Assembly (NCBI GenBank): GCA_035473115.1
Contig: DATION010000006.1
Coordinates: 521 to 64,520, forward strand
Length of the DNA stretch: 64,000 bases
Direction: 5' to 3'
Origin: Candidatus Udaeobacter sp.
GTDB taxonomy: Bacteria; Patescibacteriota; Patescibacteriia; Magasanikbacterales; GWA2-37-8
The position numbers and the translations under genes are program-made. This document shows positions 3,021 to 49,017 of this stretch, one piece after another (the first letter of the stretch is position 1; each line of letters opens with the position of its first letter). The notes beneath the pieces were generated by a model, which searched no databases, was not told where the DNA came from, and was given only the letters and a program-made list of their open reading frames with translations.

Positions 3021-5486
3021 TTACATGAGTGTTACGCTGGCCACTTTGTCTCCTTCTTCTTTAAAGCGCATTAGGCGTACTCCTTGAGTGGCTCGGCCAG
3101 AGGAATTTATAGAACCAAATGGCAGGCGGATAACCTGGCCTTTAGCAGACATAATCAGCAGATCTTTTTCTTTGGCTTCAACTGCATCAACTACTTTGGC
3201 AAAAGTTAAGTTGCCGGTTTTAGCGGTAATCTCGGCGGTCTTAATGCCGCTGCCGCCGCGTCCTTGGACTTTATATTCATCCAGTTCGGTGCGTTTGCCG
3301 ACGCCGTTTTCGCCGACTGTTAAAAATGCTAAGCTTTTATTTTTTGGATCCACTATATCCATGCCAATAACTTCGTCGCCGCTCTTTAGGCGCATGCCAC
3401 GGACGCCGCTGGCTGTGCGTCCCATTTCGCGGACGTCTTTTTCTTTGAAGCGAATAGCTTGGCCTTGTTTAGTGGCAATCATAATTTCGTCTGTGCCGGC
3501 GCTAGGCTTTACCCATTCCAAATTATCGTCTGGTTTTAATTTTATGGCGATAAGTCCGCTACGGCGTACATTGGCAAAATCTTCCAAAGCAGTTTTTTTG
3601 ATATTGCCTTTGGTGGTAGTCATTACCAGGTGCTTAATACTAGAAAGATCATTCATTCCCAGTAGCGCAGTAACTTTTTCATTGGGAGCCAGCTGCAAGA
3701 AGTTTACCAAAGCTTGGCCTTTGGCAGTGCGTGAGCCTTGCGGGATATCGTAAGCCATAAGCTGGAAGACACGGCCACGATTGGTAAAGAAGAGGATATT
3801 GTCGTGAGTGTTGGTGGCAACCAAATTTTGCACGCTTTCTTCTTCTTTGGTAGTAACGCCAATTACGCCTTTGCCGCCGCGGGATTGCTGGTGGAAAGTG
3901 TCTGGTGGCAGGCGTTTAATATAGCCATCGGAAGTAACCATAATGATGGTTGCTTCGTTAGGGATAAGATCTTCGGTGGTAAATTCTTTAATGCCGCCAG
4001 CTATAATTTGGGTGCGTCTATCCTGGCCATATTTAGCTTTTATGGCTACGGTTTCGTCGGCGATGATTTTCATTATTTTACTTTTGGAGGCCAAAATAGA
4101 TTCCAGTTCTTTAATTAAAGCTTTTTTCTCTTTTAATTCGTCTTCTATTTTTTGACGTTCCAAGTTGGCCAACTGCTGCAGCTTCATTTCCAAAATAGCT
4201 ACGGCTTGTCTGTCGGTAAATTTAAATTTAGACATCAAGTTAGCTTTGGCTTCATCTTTGTCTTTGGAAGCGCGGATAGTTTTGATGATTAAATCAATTT
4301 TATCAAGCGCCATACTTAAGCCTTCCAAAATATGGGCGCGTTCTTTGGCTTTATTTAAATCAAACTCAGTGCGGCGGCGGATAATTACTTGGCGGTGTTT
4401 AATGAATTCTTCCAAAACGTTTTTTATGGTAAGAACGCGCGGCTGAATGCCATCCACCAAAGCCAGCATGTTAACGTGGAAAGTAGTTTGCAATTCGGTC
4501 ATTTGGAAAAGTTTGTTTAGAACTTTTTTTGGGTAAGCATCTTTTTTGAGGTCAATAACTACGCGTACGCCGTCTTTGTTGGATTCATCGCGTAAATCTT
4601 TGATGCCTTCAATTTTTTTCTCTTGCACCAAGTCAGCAATTTTTTCCAAAAGAGTCGCTTTATTTATGCTGTAAGGAACTTCGGTAATGACAATTTTAAA
4701 TTGATCGGATTTGCCTTCTTGGATTTCGGCTTTTGCGCGCATCACGATTCCGCCTTTACCGGTGGAGTAAGCGGCTAAAATATCTTTTTTATTATAAATA
4801 ATGCCGCCAGTAGGGAAGTCCGGGCCTTTAATTATTTCTGCTAAATCTTCAACACTTGTCTCCGGTTCTTCGATAAGTTTGGTTAAGCCATCGCAAAGTT
4901 CACTAAGATTGTGCGGAGGAATTGAGGTGGCCATACCAACCGCAATACCCACAGTGCCGTTGAGGAGTAAGTTGGGGATTTTGGCCGGCAAAACCGTAGG
5001 CTCTTCATGCGCGCCGTCGTAGTTGGGAACAAAGTTAACTGTATCTTTTTCAATATCAAAAAGCAGCTCCTCGGCCACGGCTGACAGTTTTGCTTCGGTA
5101 TAACGCATAGCCGCCGCATTGTCGCCATCCATCGAACCAAAGTTTCCTTGGCCGTGAACCAAAGGATAGCGCATGGAGAAATCTTGTGCCATACGCACCA
5201 TAGCATCGTATATAGAAGCATCACCGTGCGGATGATATTTGGCCATCACCTCACCGACCACATTGGCGGATTTGCGGAATTTGGCTGTGTGGCGCAGTCC
5301 GATACTCCACATCGCATAAAGCACGCGACGATGTACCGGTTTAAGACCATCCCGGACATCTGGTAAAGCACGAGAGACAATTACGCTCATGGCGTATTCC
5401 AAATATGATTTTTGCATTTCGTCTACCAGTGATGCCGGGGTGATTAACCCGACTTCTTGTTTTGGCATTTCTAGTTTTTCTTGCAT
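3021..5486 (-). CDS. gyrA: DNA gyrase subunit A
   Basis: 821 aa. The active-site region [10 protein letters not shown] and the GyrA N-terminal and beta-pinwheel C-terminal domains are recognisable. Confidence 0.95.
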
Positions 5487-6589: not shown

Positions 6590-6838
6590 AAAGTTAAAGG
6601 TTATTTTTAATGAAATCACCGCCTAATTTAGGGGTGAAATACTGCTTGAAATATAAGAATATTTTATCAGTTTATTTAGAATAGCGCAAGAGGAAAATTA
6701 GATAAAAAGTTGCTGTCCGATCAGATATAAGTTGAATAAGTTTGCTTAGAGATTAATATTGACAAACCGCCCTAAATCAGTCATTATACTCCCATAAGAA
6801 CCGAGAAATCGGGGATTTTGCGTTTTTACGCAACAATT

Positions 6839-6937
6839 GTCATTCCGAATCCCCGTAGTGGATGAGGAATCTATACCTTAAATGAATAGATCCCTCGTCA
6901 CCCGTCCTTCGCGAAGAGCGGGTTCGCTCGGGATGAC
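6839..6937. repeat. MITE-like palindromic repeat, copy 2 (full-length, reverse orientation relative to copy 3)
   Basis: gtcattccgaatcc … gaggaatctat … atagatccctcgt … ctcgggatgac. Its reverse complement aligns block-for-block with 60449-60532. Confidence 0.55.
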
Positions 6938-6950
6938 AAAATAAAAGTAT

Positions 6951-8843
6951 ATGTCATTATTTAAACTTCACTCAAAATTCAAGCCTGCTGGCGATCAGCC
7001 TCAGGCAATAGAAAAGCTGGTTAATGGCCTCAAAAAAGGTGATCATTATCAGACCTTACTTGGTGTTACCGGTTCAGGTAAGACTTTTTCGGTTGCCAAT
7101 ATTATTACCCAGTTCAATAAGCCGGTTTTGGTAATGGCGCCAAATAAAGCTTTGGCCGCGCAATTATATCGTGAATACAAAAATTTCTTTCCGGAAAATT
7201 CCGTAAATTATTTTGTGTCTTATTATGATTACTACCAGCCCGAAGCTTACATGCCAACCAGTGATACCTATATAGAAAAGGAATCGATGATCAATGAAGA
7301 GATAGATCGTTTGCGTCATCAGGCCACGAGCGCTTTGATGTCACGTAAAGATGTAATTATTGTGGCTTCGGTTTCTTGTATTTATAACTTGGGCGTACCG
7401 GCAAATTATTTTGAATCAGCTCTGCATTTATCTGTCGGCCAGCCAATTGTCCGTGGTGATTTGATGCGCCAACTGGTAAAAATTCAGTTTGCTCGAACTC
7501 CAGGCGCGCTGGAAAGAGGTAAATTCCGTTTGCGCGGAGATATGTTTGAAATTATGCCGGCTTCGGAAAAAATAGCTTACCGGATAGAAATTAAAGATCA
7601 AAAAATTTTTGAAATAAATGTGATTGATGTTTTGACCAGAACCGTAAAAGAAAAATTAAATGAAGCGATTATTTTTCCGGTTAAGCATTTTATTTCTTCC
7701 GAACCGCAAATGAAAGAAGCTTTGAAAGAAATAAAACAAGAATTAAAAGAACGTCTGGCTTATTTTAAGAAAAAAGAATTATATTTGGAAGCCGAAAGAC
7801 TGGAGCGCCGCACCAAATATGATTTGGAAATGTTAAAGACTCTGGGGTTTTGTCATGGCATCGAAAATTACTCTCGGCACTTGGCTGGCAAATTGGCCGG
7901 AGAAGCGCCTGATACTTTGTTGTCTTATTTTCCATGGAAAGATGGCCCCAACGGGACAAGCAAGCCGGATTTTTTGACTATTATGGATGAGTCGCATATT
8001 GGTTTACCGCAAGTGCGCGGTATGTATGCGGGTGATCAAAGCCGCAAACAAATTTTGTCTCAATATGGCTGGCGCTTGCCTTCGGCTCTAGATAATAGGC
8101 CGTTGCGGTTTGATGAATTTGAACAGCGAGTTGGCCAGGTGATTTTTACTTCGGCCACTCCCGGAGATTTTGAGATGACTCATTCGTCTACCATTGCTGA
8201 GCAGGTCATTCGCCCTACTGGACTAATTGATCCGCCGATTGAGGTACGGCCGGTGTTTGATAAAAAAACTAACAAAGGCCAAGTGGATAATCTGATGAAA
8301 GAGATTGATAAAGTGGTGAAAAATAACGAAAGAGCGATTGTGAATGTGTTGACCAAAAAAATGGCTGAAGAATTAAATGAATTTTTATTGCAGAAAAATT
8401 ACCAAGTAAATTATCTGCATTCAGATATTAAAACTTTGCAGCGCACCGAGATTTTAACTGATTTTCGGCGCGGTAAATTTAATGTTTTAATTGGCGTTAA
8501 TTTATTGCGTGAAGGTTTGGATCTGCCGGAAGTTACTTTTGTAGCCATTATGGATGCGGATCGAGAAGGATTTTTGCGCAGTGAAGAATCACTGATGCAG
8601 ACTATGGGTCGCGCGGCGCGTAATGTGCAGGGCAAAGTTGTTTTGTACGCTGATACAATTACCGGTTCCATGAAACGAGCTATGGCTGAAGTTGAGCGCC
8701 GGAGAGCCAAGCAGTTGGCTTATAATAAAGAGCATGGCATAACTCCGCAAACCACGCATAAAGCGATTGAAGAATTTTTGGATATTCCTGAGCCTGAAGA
8801 TAAAAAAGAGGTTAAAAATAAAAGACCAAAAAGAAATAAATAA
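6951..8843 (+). CDS. uvrB: Excinuclease ABC subunit B
   Basis: 630 aa. Walker A GVTGSGKT, helicase motifs and a UvrB C-terminal UVR domain. Confidence 0.95.
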   Translation: MSLFKLHSKFKPAGDQPQAIEKLVNGLKKGDHYQTLLGVTGSGKTFSVANIITQFNKPVLVMAPNKALAAQLYREYKNFFPENSVNYFVSYYDYYQPEAYMPTSDTYIEKESMINEEIDRLRHQATSALMSRKDVIIVASVSCIYNLGVPANYFESALHLSVGQPIVRGDLMRQLVKIQFARTPGALERGKFRLRGDMFEIMPASEKIAYRIEIKDQKIFEINVIDVLTRTVKEKLNEAIIFPVKHFISSEPQMKEALKEIKQELKERLAYFKKKELYLEAERLERRTKYDLEMLKTLGFCHGIENYSRHLAGKLAGEAPDTLLSYFPWKDGPNGTSKPDFLTIMDESHIGLPQVRGMYAGDQSRKQILSQYGWRLPSALDNRPLRFDEFEQRVGQVIFTSATPGDFEMTHSSTIAEQVIRPTGLIDPPIEVRPVFDKKTNKGQVDNLMKEIDKVVKNNERAIVNVLTKKMAEELNEFLLQKNYQVNYLHSDIKTLQRTEILTDFRRGKFNVLIGVNLLREGLDLPEVTFVAIMDADREGFLRSEESLMQTMGRAARNVQGKVVLYADTITGSMKRAMAEVERRRAKQLAYNKEHGITPQTTHKAIEEFLDIPEPEDKKEVKNKRPKRNK

Positions 8844-8858
8844 TAATTAATTTGTTCT

Positions 8859-8892
8859 TTAAAAAAACAATACGCTGTCTGGGTAGACAGCG
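8859..8892 (-). terminator. Hairpin plus T-run (on minus strand) terminating the receiver-domain gene
   Basis: Stem cgctgtct / agacagcg with loop gggt. On the minus strand it is followed by tattgttttttt. A second GC hairpin gcgcctgtgggcgc lies at about 8904-8917. Confidence 0.55.
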
Positions 8893-8958
8893 AGGTCCGT
8901 TTGAGCGCCTGTGGGCGCTGGAGGTGGAACCTTTGCCAAAAGAGCTGTGTTTTGAGAT

Positions 8959-9366
8959 TTAGTATACACCAATGGGCGGTAGACCGAGCAATTCAAGCAA
9001 TATGTCAGGCAGAGTATCCTTTCTGGACTCGTGACTGCATCCCGCTTTTCTCAAGGCCCTGTTTGATTCCGGCAGGATAGATACAGCGATAATTATCCCG
9101 CCGAATCCACTCTGTCGTATCTCTCGCACGAGAGGTGGGGTATTGGCTGGGCCTGAACCCAGCGTGCCGTCCATTACGATTGCTGCCCAGTCGGAATGTG
9201 CTCGGAATGTAGTTCTGGCTTCATCCAAGGTGAATGCGGAGAACAACCTTAGTTTGGCTCCTAACTCTCCGTGCCAGCCGATCTGGATATGCTTATCATC
9301 CTCAACCAAGAGGACTTTAGGAAGGTTCACTTCATCCTCAGTCAGGAGGATTTTAGACAGTGTCAT
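8959..9366 (-). CDS. Orphan single-domain response-regulator receiver (CheY-like)
   Basis: KVLLVEDD acidic pocket, a candidate phospho-Asp in AIVMDG, and conserved S and K positions downstream. There is an AGGAG SD 8 nt before the ATG. The region is visibly GC-enriched versus the flanks. Confidence 0.6.
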   Translation of the reverse strand: MTLSKILLTEDEVNLPKVLLVEDDKHIQIGWHGELGAKLRLFSAFTLDEARTTFRAHSDWAAIVMDGTLGSGPANTPPLVREIRQSGFGGIIIAVSILPESNRALRKAGCSHESRKDTLPDILLELLGLPPIGVY

Positions 9367-9467
9367 GTTTTAACTCCTGAAAAGGTTGGTATTTAAACTA
9401 GCGTATAAAATCTTTAAAGTCAATGCTAAATATAGAAAAAATAATATATAAATTAAGTATTAGGTAT

Positions 9468-12047
9468 ATGGAAGACAAAATAATAATCAAAGGAGCCAGA
9501 GTGCACAATTTAAAAAATGTTTCTTTGGAAATTCCCAAAAATAAAATGACAGTTTTTACCGGCGTATCCGGCAGTGGCAAGTCGTCGCTGGCTTTTGATA
9601 CTATTTTTGCCGAAGGCCAGCGCCGCTACATTGAATCTTTGTCGCCATATGCGCGGCAGTTTTTGGGCCAAATGGAACGGGCCGATGTGGATGAAATTAC
9701 TGGTCTGTCTCCGGCCATTGCCATTGGCCAGAAAGCTCTCAGTCATAATCCGCGCTCGATTGTGGGTACGCTCACCGAAATTTATGATTATCTGCGCGTG
9801 CTGTATGCGCGTTTGGGTGAAGTGTATTGTCCAACTGATGGCACCAAGATCGAAAAACTTTCTCCGGAAGAAATAGTTGATATTATTATTGGCATGGGCG
9901 CGGATTTAAAAGAAAAATTTGTGACAATTTTATCGCCGGTAGTGCGCGGCCGTAAAGGCGAGTATTATCAGATGCTGTATGACTTTTTAAATGAAGGCTA
10001 TGATCAGGCGCGCGTGGACGGAAAATTAATTTCTTTGCATGATCGAATCGAACTGTCTCGGTATAAAGTTCATAACATAGATATTGTAATGGATAGAGTA
10101 ATGATTAGCGATGAAACTCGTTTGTTTGAAGCGGTTGAAAATGCTTTGGCGCATAGCAAAGGGTTGGCCTCGGTAATTTTTCGCGAAGATAAGAAAGATG
10201 AACGCGCCAGATTATTTTCCAGTAATTGGTCTTGTCCGACTGATGGTTTTTCTTTTCCCGAAATTGAACCGCGCCTGTTTTCATTTAATAGTCCGGCCGG
10301 AGCCTGTGTAGCTTGCGGCGGCTTGGGGAAAACCGATATGTTTTCCAAAGTTATCTGTCCGGATTGCCAAGGAAAAAGATTAAAGCCGGAAGCCTTATCG
10401 GTAAGAATAAAAAATAAAAATATCTATGAAGTTTGCGCTTTGACGATAGAAGAAGCCCATGAATTTTTTAAAGATTATGAAAAAAATTTAAATGAACGCC
10501 AGCATTTAATTGCTCATAATGTGGTTAAAGAAATAAATGACCGCCTAAAGTTTTTATTGGAGGTTGGTCTTGATTATATTACTTTGATTCGTGAGGCGGA
10601 AACATTATCCGGTGGGGAAGCGCAGCGCATTCGTTTAGCTTCGCAGATTGGTTCGCATCTTTCTAATACATTATATGTTTTGGATGAGCCAACCATTGGT
10701 TTGCATGAACGTGATACGGAAAGATTGGTAAAAACTTTAAAATCTTTGCGTGATGAAAATAATACGGTGATTATTGTGGAGCATGATGAACGGACAATTA
10801 AAGAATCTGATTATTTGATTGATTTGGGGCCAATGGCAGGTGAGTTGGGCGGGGAAGTTGTTTTTGCTGATGATGCGCGGCCTATAATTGCGGATGCAGA
10901 AAAAAAATTATTAACTTTAAAACGAAAAGAAGCTGTGGTATCTGCTAAAGCCGAAAAAGCAAAACCAGTTTTTGATAATGGCAGATCACTTACCCTTAAA
11001 TATCTGACTGGAGAAAATAAAATTGAAGTGCCACAAAAGCGCCGTTGGAAAGAAACAGAAGAAATTTCTATCGTTGGCGCGCGAGCCAATAATTTAAAAA
11101 ATATTAATGTAAAAATTCCGTTGCGCAAGCTGGTCTGTATTTCCGGTGTGTCGGGCGGTGGCAAATCTTCGCTTTTGTATGATGTGCTTTATGAAAATAT
11201 TGTGCGGATAAAAAGCCGTTATAAAAAATTGGAAGATGTGGCCAAAATTACCGGTACGGAATATGTAGACAAGGCGATTATCGTTGATCAATCGCCAATT
11301 GGCCGTACACCAAGGTCTAATCCGGCAACTTACACCGGTATTTTTACGCCGATTCGTGATTTTTATGCCAGTTTGGAAGAATCCAGAATGCGCGGTTATA
11401 CGCATTCTCGGTTTTCTTTTAATGTGGCTGGCGGCCGCTGCGAAGCTTGTGAAGGCGCAGGCTTTAATGTGATTGAAATGCATTTTATGCCCGAAGTGGA
11501 AGTGCCGTGTGAAGTCTGTCATGGTAAAAGATTCAGTCGTGAAACTCTGCAAGTGAAACATAAAAATAAAAATATTAGCGATGTCTTGGAAATGACGGTC
11601 AATGAAGCCGTGAAGTTTTTTGAAAATATTTATTTGATTACTGATAAATTAAAAGTGTTGCAGGAAGTTGGTCTGGGTTACTTGCGTTTGGGTCAAAGCG
11701 CCACCACGCTTTCTGGCGGCGAGGCGCAGCGTATTAAATTAGCCAGAGAACTTACTGGTCCGCTGGGCAAGAAGACTTTGTATCTTTTGGATGAGCCAAC
11801 AGTTGGTTTGCATTACCATGATATTGAAATGCTATTAAAAGTTTTGAATAAATTGGTAGATAAAGGTAATTCGATTGTGGTAATTGAGCATAATTTGCAT
11901 ATTATAAAATGCGCGGATTATGTGATTGATATGGGGCCCGAAGGTGGAGCTAAAGGCGGAACCGTAGTGGCCAAAGGCACGCCCGAAGAAGTGGCGGATA
12001 ATCCAAATTCTTATACAGGCATGTATTTAAAAGAGTATTTGGATTAA
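9468..12047 (+). CDS. uvrA: Excinuclease ABC subunit A (compact, about 859 aa)
   Basis: N-terminus [17 protein letters not shown], two ABC ATPase modules (GVSGSGKSS twice), zinc-finger cysteines and LSGGE signatures. The ORF is open from 9423, but the homologous start is Met 9468. Confidence 0.93.
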
Positions 12048-13957: not shown

Positions 13958-13966
13958 ATTTAATCA

Positions 13967-13995
13967 TTGACTTTTTACTCGTAAAATAGTATAAG
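13967..13995 (+). promoter_or_regulatory. Second copy of the TTGACT-N17-TATAAG promoter
   Basis: TTGACT at 13967-13972 and TATAAG at 13990-13995. An AGAGGAG SD at 14024-14030 precedes the ATG at 14041. Confidence 0.5.
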
Positions 13996-14040
13996 TGAGC
14001 TACCAAGGTTTTTGATCAAACAAAGAGGAGTTCTTTGAAT

Positions 14041-14370
14041 ATGGAAGATCTGATTTTCCGGCTTATCTTTTGTCTCTGGAGAGCCAGCAGTAAGACACTA
14101 TCGATAGTTACGCTGGAAGGATGGCGTTTTCGTCGATGGGAAAAAAATCATCCTTCGCTTGAAGCTCTGCAAGCCCGGGAGCGTAGGTTGCAGGAGTTGC
14201 ACAGCCTAAATGAAATAGATATAGAGGCTATAAAGGAGCGTTGGCCTCTAGGTACGCCCCCTACAGTGGAGCTTACCAGTAGGCTTGTCAGGAGAGGAAA
14301 CATCAGCAAAGAGTTATTAAAACTCAGACAAGCCATCGAGAGAAAGAGGTCATGGCAAAGATTAGTTTAG
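14041..14370 (+). CDS. Hypothetical Arg/Glu-rich 109-aa protein
   Basis: ORF with a good SD. It is predicted helical and charged (…EALQARERRLQELHSLNEIDIEAIKERW…) with no recognisable family. Its G+C is higher than the flanks. The listed ORF starts at a TTG at 14035, which is too close to the SD. Confidence 0.45.
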   Translation: MEDLIFRLIFCLWRASSKTLSIVTLEGWRFRRWEKNHPSLEALQARERRLQELHSLNEIDIEAIKERWPLGTPPTVELTSRLVRRGNISKELLKLRQAIERKRSWQRLV

Positions 14371-22301: not shown

Positions 22302-22598
22302 CTAAGCCTTCTTGGCAGCAGCTTTTTTGGCGGTCTTTTTGGCAGCTACAGCCGCTTTCTTGGCTTTTTGGCCTTTGCGGGCTGCGGCAGCGGAAGTTTT
22401 TTTGTCGGAACGTTCTTGGAATTTTTCTACGCGGCGAGCAGTATCAACAAATTTTTGTTTGCCGGTATAAAAAGGATGGCACTTATTGCAAAGTTCCACG
22501 CGGATAGTTTTCATGGTGCTGCCAGTGGTAAAAGTGTTGCCGCAGGCGCAGGTAACTTCCGTGTCATTATGATATTCAGGGTGAATTTTTTTCTGCAT
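22302..22598 (-). CDS. rpmE: Ribosomal protein L31 with a long Lys/Ala-rich C-terminal extension
   Basis: [10 protein letters not shown]…CxC…[11 protein letters not shown]31 zinc-binding core, then a roughly 35-aa AAKKA-type tail. Promoter TTGACA-N17-TATAGT on the minus strand at about 22610-22638. Confidence 0.85.
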
Positions 22599-23146: not shown

Positions 23147-23287
23147 GGTTTGTTGCCTTTTGCAGCCAACAACTGTAGAATAAGCAATACTTCCTAAGGT
23201 TCGGGTGATTTTTACCCGGATTAAAGGATGTGACAATCAACAAAAAACAACGCGGCAGTAAAACGCGATCAACCCAGGAGGAATCAA

Positions 23288-23920
23288 ATGGCAACGAATC
23301 AGGCGCTGAACGTACTGGACCTGGACACCGATGTCCCCGCGGATCCCACGGTTGGGATGAGCGACGCAGAAGTTCTGGAGGGATGGGATGCCCTGCTCGC
23401 CGGTCTGCCCAATGGTGGTGCAGTGGAGCAGTCCGAGGCCGCGGCCACGACGACCAACTCGCTCGATCCCGGCCACGAAGCGGCGCCGAACGATCCCCTC
23501 GAGCTCCAGTTCGAGATCGATGACCAGGTCATGCTCATCGGACCCGTCACGGCCGATGAGCAGCCCAGCGACCACAGCGTCGTCATGGCCAACCCGCCCA
23601 CCGTGGACGAGGAGTGGCCGGCCATCGACAAGCTCGATGTCGTGGCTGCCACTAATCCGGCCGACCCGAACGACGCGGACGAGTTCGGCGGAGACACCAA
23701 GGAGATCGAGCTCCCCCAGTTCCCGGACAGCGCGACCGAGCCGTCGGCTGATGGTGATGGTCAGGCCCCCACCGATCTGGATGCCGACCCCAACTACGCC
23801 GAGTTCGAGGTCGAGGGTCTGGTCCTCGACGAGGACGATCGGCCGCTGATGACCAGCGGTACCATCGTCGACGCCGCGACCCCGTCGTCCCACGACGACC
23901 AGCTGCGCTGCACGGACTGA
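23288..23920 (+). CDS. Hyper-acidic, Pro/Asp/Glu-rich 210-aa protein encoded by a high-GC ORF (island gene 2)
   Basis: ATG 6 nt after AGGAGG. Very high third-position G/C in this frame. Roughly a quarter of residues are Asp/Glu and there are only about 4 Lys/Arg. The overlapping long ORFs on other frames are GC-shadow artefacts. Confidence 0.55.
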   Translation: MATNQALNVLDLDTDVPADPTVGMSDAEVLEGWDALLAGLPNGGAVEQSEAAATTTNSLDPGHEAAPNDPLELQFEIDDQVMLIGPVTADEQPSDHSVVMANPPTVDEEWPAIDKLDVVAATNPADPNDADEFGGDTKEIELPQFPDSATEPSADGDGQAPTDLDADPNYAEFEVEGLVLDEDDRPLMTSGTIVDAATPSSHDDQLRCTD

Positions 23921-23963
23921 CGCAAGTCAATCACGCGCGGCAGCCAGCCGTCACAGCAGTACA

Positions 23964-24013
23964 CCTCGCCCTGACCAGGGAACAGCTCTGGTCACGGCGA
24001 GGCTTTTGTTTTT
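23964..24013 (+). terminator. Strong rho-independent terminator after the acidic gene
   Basis: 15-bp stem cctcgccctgaccag / ctggtcacggcgagg with one mismatch and loop ggaacagct, followed by cttttgttttt. Confidence 0.7.
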
Positions 24014-24103: not shown

Positions 24104-24490
24104 TTATTTTAAGACGGAAACTGGTAGATTTTGGGTAGAGAGGTGCGCCAGCCAGTCTTTGATCCCAACTAGGAAGGATTCAACAGCTTTCAGGCTATCT
24201 GTGCTATTATTATCCTCTTTGAGATTAACAAAGTTGACATGGCCCATATCCAGCTCTCTTGCTGGCATGATGCCAATCCTGACTTTTATTTTTAGCGTTC
24301 TCCACTGGGCATCAGTGTTTTCGATCTCTCCTTTGATTTCCCACTGTGGAGTGAGTGGAATGAAAAATGTGAAGTAGCCATTTTTATTGGCTTCGTAGCG
24401 ACGGGAGCACCGGGGAAAGAGCTTGAGCAGAAGCTCTTTGAGTATTCTGCAGTTTTCTACTACGATTTTTCGTTCATGATCATCCAGCAT
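24104..24490 (-). CDS. Hypothetical 128-aa protein (island gene 3), convergent with the acidic gene
   Basis: ATG at 24490 with an AGGAAG SD 7 nt upstream. Minus-strand promoter TTGACT-N16-TAGTAT at about 24570-24600. No family recognised. Confidence 0.5.
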   Translation of the reverse strand: MLDDHERKIVVENCRILKELLLKLFPRCSRRYEANKNGYFTFFIPLTPQWEIKGEIENTDAQWRTLKIKVRIGIMPARELDMGHVNFVNLKEDNNSTDSLKAVESFLVGIKDWLAHLSTQNLPVSVLK

Positions 24491-24627
24491 GGTTTTACTT
24501 CCTAAGTGTGGTTTGGCCAAACCTGTTGTGCGTGTGTGTTGGTATGGCCAATACTAGCAGTTTTAAGGGAAAAGTCAATGTATTATCTGGTTTAGTAGTA
24601 AAGGTAAGATAAATTAGCATCTAACTC

Positions 24628-47934: not shown

Positions 47935-49017
47935 ATGCCGGAAAGATTTAATGACGGTCCGCCTTCTGAGCGTGGGCCAGTTGAACCTAAAAGAATAATA
48001 AGGTTTGCTGACTTGCTTCCGGCAGAGATAGAATCAGATAAAGCTTCTTCCAAGGTGAATAGAGCACCGCGCTTTATTTTTGAATACGTGCCAACAGAAG
48101 TGCAAACTGAAGGCGCTCTAGTAACTCCGGAAGTAAATGTCCAAGAAAATTTTGAGGTAGAGACAACTCGTTTTAACGGAGGTGCATTTATTAGAATGCC
48201 ATCGGCATTGGATAGCAGCAGCAAGTCATTGCTAAAAAATTGTCAGGACGCTGGGGCTTTACATTTAGGTAAGGACGGAAAAATGATTAATTTTGCTATG
48301 GGTGATGGTGTTAGCCAAAGCATGAACGGAAAAGCTGCTGCCGAGATGGCAACATCGGTTGCTTTAGAAGAGTTAGTAGCCACAGCTGGCATTGCTCATA
48401 ATAATTTGACAATGAGAAGTTTAATCCAAAAAGTGGAGCAAAGAATGCAAGCTGGTGATTTGGATGCTTTAAAAGAGCAATGGGCTCAGGATATTTTGAT
48501 TAATAAGAATATCTCTCCAGGTATTTTACGCAGTGCTTTGTTGGCAGATCTGGGTTATCAAGAAAATAATGGTGTGTTAGAAAAAACTAAAGCTCCAGCT
48601 AAGGATAAAAAATTAGGGTCAACAACTTTAATGGTCGGGCAATTAGAAAATAATCATTTAAAATTAGCTTATTCTAGTGACGGTGGTTTTATCGTTGTTA
48701 ACAGCAAAGGAGTTAAGATGTTTAGCGGTCAACATGCGATTATAAAATCGCCTCCTCAATTAAGGCTGGCAGGTGATAAAATTGATATAAACGCAATTCA
48801 GTATACAGATATAGAACTAGATAAAGGCGATAAGGTTTTGGTGTATAGCGATGGTTTGTATCATACAAAAAAAGGCGGCGAGGTAAGTTCTGAGGCACGA
48901 GCAAAACAAGTTGCTGACTTGGTTAAACAAGGCAATGCCGTAGAACAGATCGCTAAAACTTTAATGCAAGACGCTGCCGGTATGGACGATATCGAAGTTT
49001 TGGCTTTTGAGTATTAA
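47935..49017 (+). CDS. PP2C-family Ser/Thr protein phosphatase-like protein with an approximately 100-aa N-terminal extension
   Basis: PP2C signature blocks: AMGDGVSQ (the metal-binding DG.GG region), GSTTLMV, VYSDGLY and GMDDIEVLAF. Confidence 0.55.
   Translation: MPERFNDGPPSERGPVEPKRIIRFADLLPAEIESDKASSKVNRAPRFIFEYVPTEVQTEGALVTPEVNVQENFEVETTRFNGGAFIRMPSALDSSSKSLLKNCQDAGALHLGKDGKMINFAMGDGVSQSMNGKAAAEMATSVALEELVATAGIAHNNLTMRSLIQKVEQRMQAGDLDALKEQWAQDILINKNISPGILRSALLADLGYQENNGVLEKTKAPAKDKKLGSTTLMVGQLENNHLKLAYSSDGGFIVVNSKGVKMFSGQHAIIKSPPQLRLAGDKIDINAIQYTDIELDKGDKVLVYSDGLYHTKKGGEVSSEARAKQVADLVKQGNAVEQIAKTLMQDAAGMDDIEVLAFEY

Follow-up and report, generated by a model that had tools for sequence, protein, structure and literature searches.

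A predicted stand-alone receiver-domain gene in a variable uvrB-uvrA junction of a Patescibacteria genome

In the genome of Candidatus Udaeobacter sp. (assembly GCA_035473115.1, placed by GTDB among the Magasanikbacterales of the Patescibacteriota) the repair genes uvrB and uvrA are separated by a small gene on the opposite strand. We analyzed this gene within 64,000 nucleotides (nt) of contig DATION010000006.1 (positions 521 to 64,520 of the forward strand), referred to below as the window. Family comparison and structure modeling indicate that its 135-amino-acid (aa) product is a stand-alone receiver of a divergent, largely unannotated subfamily. On balance we regard it as probable that the gene encodes a functional receiver with a phosphorylation mechanism centered on aspartate 66 (D66), that it sits in a hypervariable slot whose content has been replaced repeatedly, and that its N-terminal tail was left by a duplication. 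The gene itself is real and a fairly ordinary accessory gene.

Receiver family, predicted fold and active site

When 1.84 billion representatives were searched exhaustively with phmmer (E ≤ 1e-3, clusters at 50% identity), the window protein fell into a family comprising at least 677 representative clusters. Most members are stand-alone proteins of 114–125 aa that align to residues 14–129 of the query, and the only one found with a public name is listed as a 'hypothetical protein'. The nearest homologues share 43–47% identity with the window protein.

The initial annotation had read the gene product as a stand-alone CheY-like receiver, and both the family profile and structure prediction supported this fold. 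Compared with the PDB, the profile matched 212 distinct sequences of solved chains (E ≤ 1, the lowest being 1.3e-12); the best 60 of these 212 matches are almost all receiver domains of response regulators or histidine kinases, and the Asp, Ser and Lys positions are in register with the solved receivers. In an alignment of 96 family members, which also underlies the conservation figures given below, 81 matched Pfam Response_reg (PF00072) at E ≤ 1, the best at 6e-9. The gathering score of PF00072 is 30.2 bits, and three slot relatives scanned singly reached only 14–17 bits. A PDB search with the single window sequence yielded a lone match at E = 0.28, which was rejected as spurious.

An AlphaFold2 model computed from the family alignment reached a predicted local distance difference test score (pLDDT) of 94.9 and a predicted template modeling score (pTM) of 0.87, and displays the β1-α1 to β5-α5 topology with strands at residues 17–21, 40–44, 60–66, 91–95 and 112–114 and helices at residues 25–35, 47–56, 77–85, 99–108 and 116–126. 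When this model was compared with the PDB by Foldseek, each of the top 50 matches was a receiver domain or a chain containing one, at template modeling (TM) scores of about 0.75 normalized by target.

The active-site quintet E22, D23, D66, S96 and K116 is complete in the window protein. Conservation in the family amounts to 100% for E/D22, 98% for D23, 95% for D66 (91/96), 92% for S96 and 98% for K116, with G109 at 100% and C110 at 98%; every near-invariant residue is retained in the window copy. The family signature consists of a near-invariant A-G-C-x-H on β5 and a longer β3-α3 loop containing N-T-x-P-L. With 135 aa, a fold confined to residues 14–129 and no output domain, the protein is predicted to be a single-domain response regulator.

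Cysteines recur in the family at position D+2 (residue 68, 68%), at C110 (98%) and at residue 114 (42%), accompanied by His or Tyr at 112. The window copy keeps C110 and H112 only. These residues may form a site near the acceptor pocket that is sensitive to redox state or metals.

Organization of the gene and its expression signals

The initial annotation had described a 135-aa open reading frame (ORF) antisense between uvrB and uvrA, with its own Shine-Dalgarno sequence and an intrinsic terminator facing uvrB. We recovered the frame with the sequence as quoted and refined its position, and both signals were located. The features of the locus are as follows.

6951–8843, plus strand: uvrB, convergent with the receiver gene
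8851–8943, no strand assigned: conserved two-hairpin block 3' of uvrB, common to relatives with different cargo
8857–8892, minus strand: predicted intrinsic terminator, hairpin 8892–8873 followed by a T-run
8959–9366, minus strand: receiver coding sequence, 135 aa, the one long ORF in the uvrB-uvrA gap
8980–9327, minus strand: predicted receiver (βα)5 domain, residues 14–129 (AlphaFold2 and Foldseek)
9169–9171, minus strand: codon of D66, predicted phospho-acceptor Asp at the end of β3, aligned with the phospho-Asp of solved receivers
9295–9330, minus strand: copy 2 of the duplication, codons 13–24, VNLPKVLLVEDD, with a GTG at the ancestral start position, β1 and the acidic pair E22/D23
9331–9366, minus strand: copy 1 of the duplication, codons 1–12, MTLSKILLTEDE, a degenerate tail outside the fold, 26/36 identical to copy 2
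9374–9378, minus strand: Shine-Dalgarno sequence AGGAG, 7 nt 5' of the ATG, read directly from the sequence
9395–9400, minus strand: putative -10-like box TAGTTT, assigned by consensus
9418–9423, minus strand: -35-like box TTGACT of the receiver gene promoter, a consensus match
9468–12047, plus strand: uvrA, divergent from the receiver gene, starting at the conserved ATGGAAGACAAA

The predicted promoter has the form TTGACT-N17-TAGTTT (9423–9395, minus strand). A TTGACW-N16-18-TAnnnT pattern is also found 5' of rpsB, ndk, valS and other genes of the window. The ATTGACTT box likewise precedes the cargo of this junction in the related loci L008, L014, L017, L058 and L091, and the -10 equivalents read TAGTGT in L017 and TAGCCT in L091. 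The terminator stem comprises 8 bp including 5 GC pairs and is followed by TATTGTTTTT; the 3' region of the receiver gene folds with z = -4.9 relative to shuffled sequences. Judged by these signals, the ORF appears to be a complete, independent, monocistronic unit with a host-type promoter, Shine-Dalgarno sequence, ATG and terminator. A sigma-70-type promoter of its own would drive the gene divergently from uvrA, and the conserved hairpin terminator would halt transcription before it runs antisense into uvrB. An identical receiver gene is present on an overlapping contig in the Logan assembly of SRR9656165.

The long uvrA ORF opens at 9423. The ATG at 9468, however, belongs to ATGGAAGACAAA, which is conserved in eight relatives, and the public uvrA call (859 aa) lacks 15 residues of the long ORF, as a start at 9468 would predict. 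The first 15 codons of the long frame (9423–9467) are probably an untranslated promoter region.

A 36-nt tandem duplication at the 5' end

The initial annotation had noticed a degenerate duplicate of the acidic motif at the N-terminus. At the DNA level this is a real tandem duplication: the two 36-nt copies agree in 26 of 36 nt, the start codon included (ATG versus GTG), and they form the strongest self-match with a 36-nt period in the whole 64 kb, as determined by direct comparison and a repeat search. Tandem Repeats Finder made no call here; the duplication was detected by direct comparison. Alignments with homologues begin at query residues 14–17, homologue P0002 starts with MPLPKVLLVED, that is at copy 2, and in the model residues 1–13 lie outside the βα core with a pLDDT of about 75. 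Since the start codon was duplicated, homologues begin at copy 2 and residues 1–13 are not part of the fold, we conclude that a duplication of the 5' end left the tail behind. The 12-residue N-terminal tail is thus a by-product of this event and not a second acidic pocket. The GTG of copy 2 is preceded by GAGGA and may serve as a translation start.

Base composition and codon usage

The receiver gene is compositionally foreign. Its G+C content (GC) is 50.2%, compared with 39.6% for the window, and lies above that of both neighbors, as the initial annotation had remarked. Relative to 53 other ORFs of the window, whose mean GC is 0.394, the receiver gene reaches 0.502 (z = 4.0), and its GC at third codon positions (GC3) is 0.522 against 0.355 (z = 3.7). 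In terms of synonymous-codon log-likelihood the ORF is the most atypical of all 54 (z = -8.1), and only 1.6% of 408-nt windows attain its GC. Amino-acid composition accounts for about half of the excess, with 0.449 expected under host codons and 0.506 observed.

All cargo found between uvrB and uvrA is GC-rich relative to its own host. This includes REC1, a receiver gene with vertically inherited orthologues in L017 and L058, which has a GC3 of about 0.56 in hosts of 0.42 GC. Since REC1 keeps this value through vertical descent, high GC is neither proof nor a clock of recent arrival.

The uvrB-uvrA junction in related genomes

A search with UvrB gave 80 Patescibacteria loci, the nearest of which are labeled Parcubacteria group or Candidatus Magasanikbacteria and share 79–92% UvrB identity with the window; a genome scan with the Gmad2-like neighbor as query returned no relatives. 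Among the 69 Patescibacteria loci that have uvrB followed by uvrA, the two genes are approximately adjacent (about 150 nt or less) in 29, which makes adjacency the plausible ancestral state. We compared the junction of the 12 closest relatives, with the following outcome.

Gap of 8–20 nt: L012, L015, L016, L018
Gap of 93 nt: L010
Gap of 189 nt: L013
Small, unrelated ORFs in antisense orientation, each having a ATTGACTT box and a Shine-Dalgarno sequence of its own: L008, L009, L014/L088
Receiver-subfamily genes in the slot: L017 (two), L058 (one, plus an unrelated ORF), L091/L092 (one)

The two closest relatives, L008 (92% UvrB identity) and L010 (89%), have no receiver gene. Together with the four loci with gaps of 8–20 nt, this indicates that the junction is a variable slot that takes up small genes. 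A gene of host-like composition in the junctions of all relatives would have counted against the initial annotation; what we found is its absence from L008, L010, L012, L015, L016 and L018. On the other hand, different members of the subfamily occupy the slot in L017, L058 and L091/L092. This recurrence looks like an old tie between family and junction rather than a one-off foreign insertion. The slot would have opened in an ancestrally contiguous uvrB-uvrA pair, its contents then being swapped repeatedly in Magasanikbacteria-like lineages.

The other slot cargo is not recognizably regulatory. Profile hidden Markov model (HMM), blastn and tblastx comparisons detected no similarity to receiver genes in the gaps of L008, L009, L014 and L058 beyond the hairpin block described below, so that an interpretation of these gaps as decayed receiver genes is not supported.

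The hairpin block 3' of uvrB is shared with L009 (5560–5655), L014 (8012–8105), L058 (8462–8555) and L017 (about 8570–8620) at 77–89% identity over 49–94 nt, and lies in the middle of the gap in L017 and L058. Between these species uvrB dS (synonymous substitutions per site) exceeds 0.9, yet the block has an invariant 30-nt core, GACGCTGTCTGGGTAGACAGCGAGGYCCGT. The block is single-copy in the window and its sole exact metagenome match falls at the same uvrB-uvrA locus (L088, 984–1013); a dispersed repeat or miniature inverted-repeat transposable element was rejected on these grounds. In every locus the antisense cargo terminates at this block, which therefore belongs to the slot itself and did not come in with the receiver gene. 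A few one-sided substitutions give G·U pairs and keep pairing on the plus-strand RNA only. The block may be more than a terminator.

Orthology and origin of the slot receivers

Between L017 and L058, REC1 shows 83.5% identity, a dS of 0.70 (uvrB dS 0.90), a dN (nonsynonymous substitutions per site) about twice that of uvrB and a dN/dS of 0.13, which indicates purifying selection on this slot-resident relative; uvrB values were taken from a codon alignment. The receivers of the window and L091 are 40% identical (dN 0.58, uvrB dN 0.08), whereas the rate of REC1 predicts about 75%. The slot receivers share only 34–41% identity among themselves, non-syntenic family members are closer (43–46%), and in a neighbor-joining tree the slot receivers do not cluster. 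Most simply read, these data point to slot receivers that were replaced repeatedly, or to old paralogues that were retained differentially, and not to orthologous descent. As the window copy is non-orthologous and has foreign codon usage, it would most likely have been brought in by recombination; the most economical route would be homologous exchange within the conserved flanking genes uvrB and uvrA.

Searches for a vehicle gave the following. No tRNA lies near the receiver gene; Rfam reported a single tRNA elsewhere in the window and nothing that would suggest a non-coding RNA at this locus. We found no convincing flanking target duplication, only weak AT-rich inverted repeats. An integron cassette was rejected, as neither strand of 8844–8960 contains RYYYAAC/GTTRRRY cores and no integrase is encoded in the window. 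tblastn against phages and plasmids and a single-protein scan of viral contigs detected no homologue. PADLOC gave no match, and in PHROGs some family members matched weakly to phrog_731 and two others of unknown function, so that a defense or phage origin is not supported. The initial annotation had proposed acquisition of small regulatory cargo. Foreign composition and absence from the closest relatives agree with acquisition; the regulatory part does not extend to the other slot cargo, no donor or mobile element was found, and the family is recurrent at this slot.

It is possible, if rather unlikely, that the receiver is instead an ancient resident, a gene or tandem paralogue array already located between uvrB and uvrA in the common ancestor of these Magasanikbacteria-like lineages, which evolved fast and was differentially retained or lost. 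One subfamily occupies the same slot in four lineages, always antisense and divergent from uvrA. Arrays do exist, with two copies in L017 and three copies close together in L005; the window shares its terminator block and TTGACT box with the REC2 unit of L017, and the vertical descent of REC1 and the persistence of its high GC fit residence as well. Residence does not readily explain why slot receivers resemble each other less than they resemble non-syntenic members and fail to cluster, nor the codon usage of the window gene, the most atypical among the ORFs. The two closest relatives are devoid of any receiver, and the unrelated cargo of L008, L009, L014 and L058 shows no residual receiver similarity. 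Repeated replacement remains our preferred reading.

Predicted function and signaling context

In function, the window protein would most likely be a phosphorylatable single-domain response regulator acting by protein-protein contact. D66 would receive its phosphoryl group either from a histidine kinase or phosphotransferase encoded elsewhere or from a small phosphodonor, for example acetyl phosphate. E22 and D23 would bind Mg2+, S96 and K116 would relay the change, and the phosphorylated domain might bind another protein or serve as a phosphate shuttle or sink.

The initial annotation had pointed out that the 64 kb contain no cognate histidine kinase. We indeed found no HisKA, HATPase_c or Hpt domain in the 29 other window ORFs scanned with Pfam and no kinase by EnvZ tblastn and motif scans of the window; the remaining ORFs seem, from their N-terminal sequences, to be recognizable housekeeping genes. 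Per 100 genes, bacteria of the Candidate Phyla Radiation (CPR) encode 0.29 histidine kinases on average, and no kinase at all is found in 19% of CPR metagenome-assembled genomes (PMC10805038). About 0.16 kinases are thus expected by chance among the approximately 55 genes of the window, so that the absence, correct as an observation, says little as an argument. Other signaling genes of the window are a RelA/SpoT-family (p)ppGpp synthetase/hydrolase (HD_4, RelA_SpoT, TGS) at 1448–2968 on the minus strand and a PP2C/SpoIIE-type phosphatase at 47935–49017 on the plus strand.

Several points weigh against a functional, repeatedly replaced receiver. The window protein has no close orthologue, the best match among all representatives searched being the 43–47% noted above. 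Taken alone it matches neither Pfam nor NCBIfam even at E ≤ 10, which means that receiver homology is visible only at the family level, by profile and fold. An aromatic switch residue on β5 (Y106 of CheY) and a Lys-Pro pair at the β5-α5 loop are typical of receivers, if not universal; the window protein has E113 at the switch position and D117 in place of the Pro, both positions being variable in the family. A kinase, Hpt protein or conserved partner was found neither in the window nor in about 10 distinct neighborhoods of family members, and neither a donor lineage nor a transfer vehicle was identified. Lastly, vertically inherited slot genes are GC-high too, which weakens the compositional argument for recent transfer.

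Family members were also encountered at other loci. On a Patescibacteria-like contig (L005) three subfamily receivers lie within 4 kb (4878–5231, 6645–6998 and 8001–8372); in two of the three the acceptor Asp is replaced by Glu and Ser and Lys are missing, so that these are likely pseudo-receivers. Members adjoin a DNA polymerase X with PHP/HHH domains in L006/L007 (1670–2053) and L093/L094 (2576–2959), and in L089 (8001–8351) only a few genes separate a member and mfd, dprA and topA. To judge by gene order, an association of the subfamily with DNA-repair neighborhoods is possible.

It appears improbable to us that the receiver is tied to nucleotide-excision repair or DNA metabolism, either by modulating UvrA or UvrB or by co-regulation through the shared divergent promoter region. 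Such a tie would account for the recurrence of the family at uvrB-uvrA, always divergent from uvrA, and for the members beside DNA polymerase X and near mfd-dprA-topA. Most close relatives, however, have an intact uvrB-uvrA pair without a receiver, other contexts of the family are unrelated to repair, and the slot accepts unrelated genes as well. The invariant hairpin core does hold a CTGT-N8-ACAG site, the sole one in 64 kb, but a match occurred in 22 of 100 shuffles and any palindromic hairpin would give such a site; no LexA or other regulator was identified. Similarly slim is the chance of a more specific version, in which the junction is a dedicated small expression slot, built of the divergent promoter and the hairpin block, into which kinase-unlinked receivers are swapped for their link to excision repair. 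If true, the dedicated slot would be a DNA-damage-linked signaling module in organisms that have hardly any two-component systems.

That the gene is a decaying pseudo-receiver, a hitchhiking remnant without phospho-signaling, has little probability: the missing Pfam match of the single sequence, the degenerate N-terminal duplication, the replacement of two family-common cysteines (C68 by T and C114 by S), the lack of close orthologues and the loss of pocket residues in the L005 paralogues (acceptor D to E, no Lys) would fit decay, but the frame is full-length, its expression signals are intact, no near-invariant family residue is lost, the structure model is very confident and a slot-resident relative is under purifying selection.

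Relation to known systems

A functional accessory receiver compares most directly with the single-domain response regulators CheY, Spo0F, DivK and CpdR (PF00072, CheY-like superfamily), with which the window protein shares the (βα)5 fold, the positions of the acidic pair, Asp, Ser/Thr and Lys, the lack of an output domain and a length of about 120 aa. In contrast to these, the window protein and three slot members score below the Pfam gathering threshold, A-G-C-x-H replaces G-A-x-D-Y/F on β5, the aromatic switch and the post-Lys Pro are missing and the β3-α3 loop is longer. Neither a kinase gene nor chemotaxis genes were seen in linkage, and the family members examined come from Patescibacteria or Patescibacteria-like contigs.

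The best structural matches are receivers of the OmpR/PhoB type, namely 6ont (Francisella 1452), 3nns (DrrB), 8fk2 (VicR) and 1nxo (the RR02/YycF homologue of S. pneumoniae), with TM scores of 0.73–0.78 normalized by target, root-mean-square deviations of 2.6–3.0 Å and profile E-values of 1e-12 to 1e-10. Identity to these is only 15–25%, and they carry a DNA-binding output domain and have cognate kinases, while the window protein has neither. Weak family matches to cREC_REC (PF20274; 5/96) and OKR_DC_1_N (PF03709; 24/96) stand against the stronger Response_reg matches (81/96); the window protein itself matches neither of these two families, and no cyclic-phosphate or decarboxylase context was found.

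With respect to the locus, the junction resembles genomic islets or flexible-genome slots in its conserved flanks, a content that varies among close relatives, atypical composition and the lack of an integrase. It differs from them in that it holds only one or two genes, splits a repair pair and repeatedly houses one receiver subfamily.

Patescibacteria have very few histidine kinases and their environmental sensing is poorly understood. Recognition of the family adds candidate signaling proteins to these minimal genomes, since most of the members that were scored singly lie below the Pfam threshold. The uvrB-uvrA slot offers a compact, comparable case of small accessory-gene exchange without recognizable mobile elements. 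For the window, the gain is mainly that the gene is now annotated correctly and its evolutionary context is clearer; the gene does not represent a new type of system.

Further observations in the window

An island of 65–67% GC in the 39.6% GC genome spans 23250–24000, between an rpmE-like ORF (22302–22598, minus strand) and rpsB (24748, plus strand). It contains an ORF for an acidic low-complexity product of 210 aa (23288–23920, plus strand) and, opposite to it, an ORF of 218 aa (23237–23893, minus strand); the minus-strand ORF has no Pfam match and the island no Rfam match. A ATTGACTT box lies next to the island at 23924–23931 on the minus strand. Two orphan ORFs without Pfam match were also noticed, one of approximately 109–111 aa at 14035/14041–14370 (plus strand) and one of 138 aa at 24104–24520 (minus strand). 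Both (regions 13966–14370 and 24104–24579) are preceded by a ATTGACTT -35-like box, as is the receiver gene.

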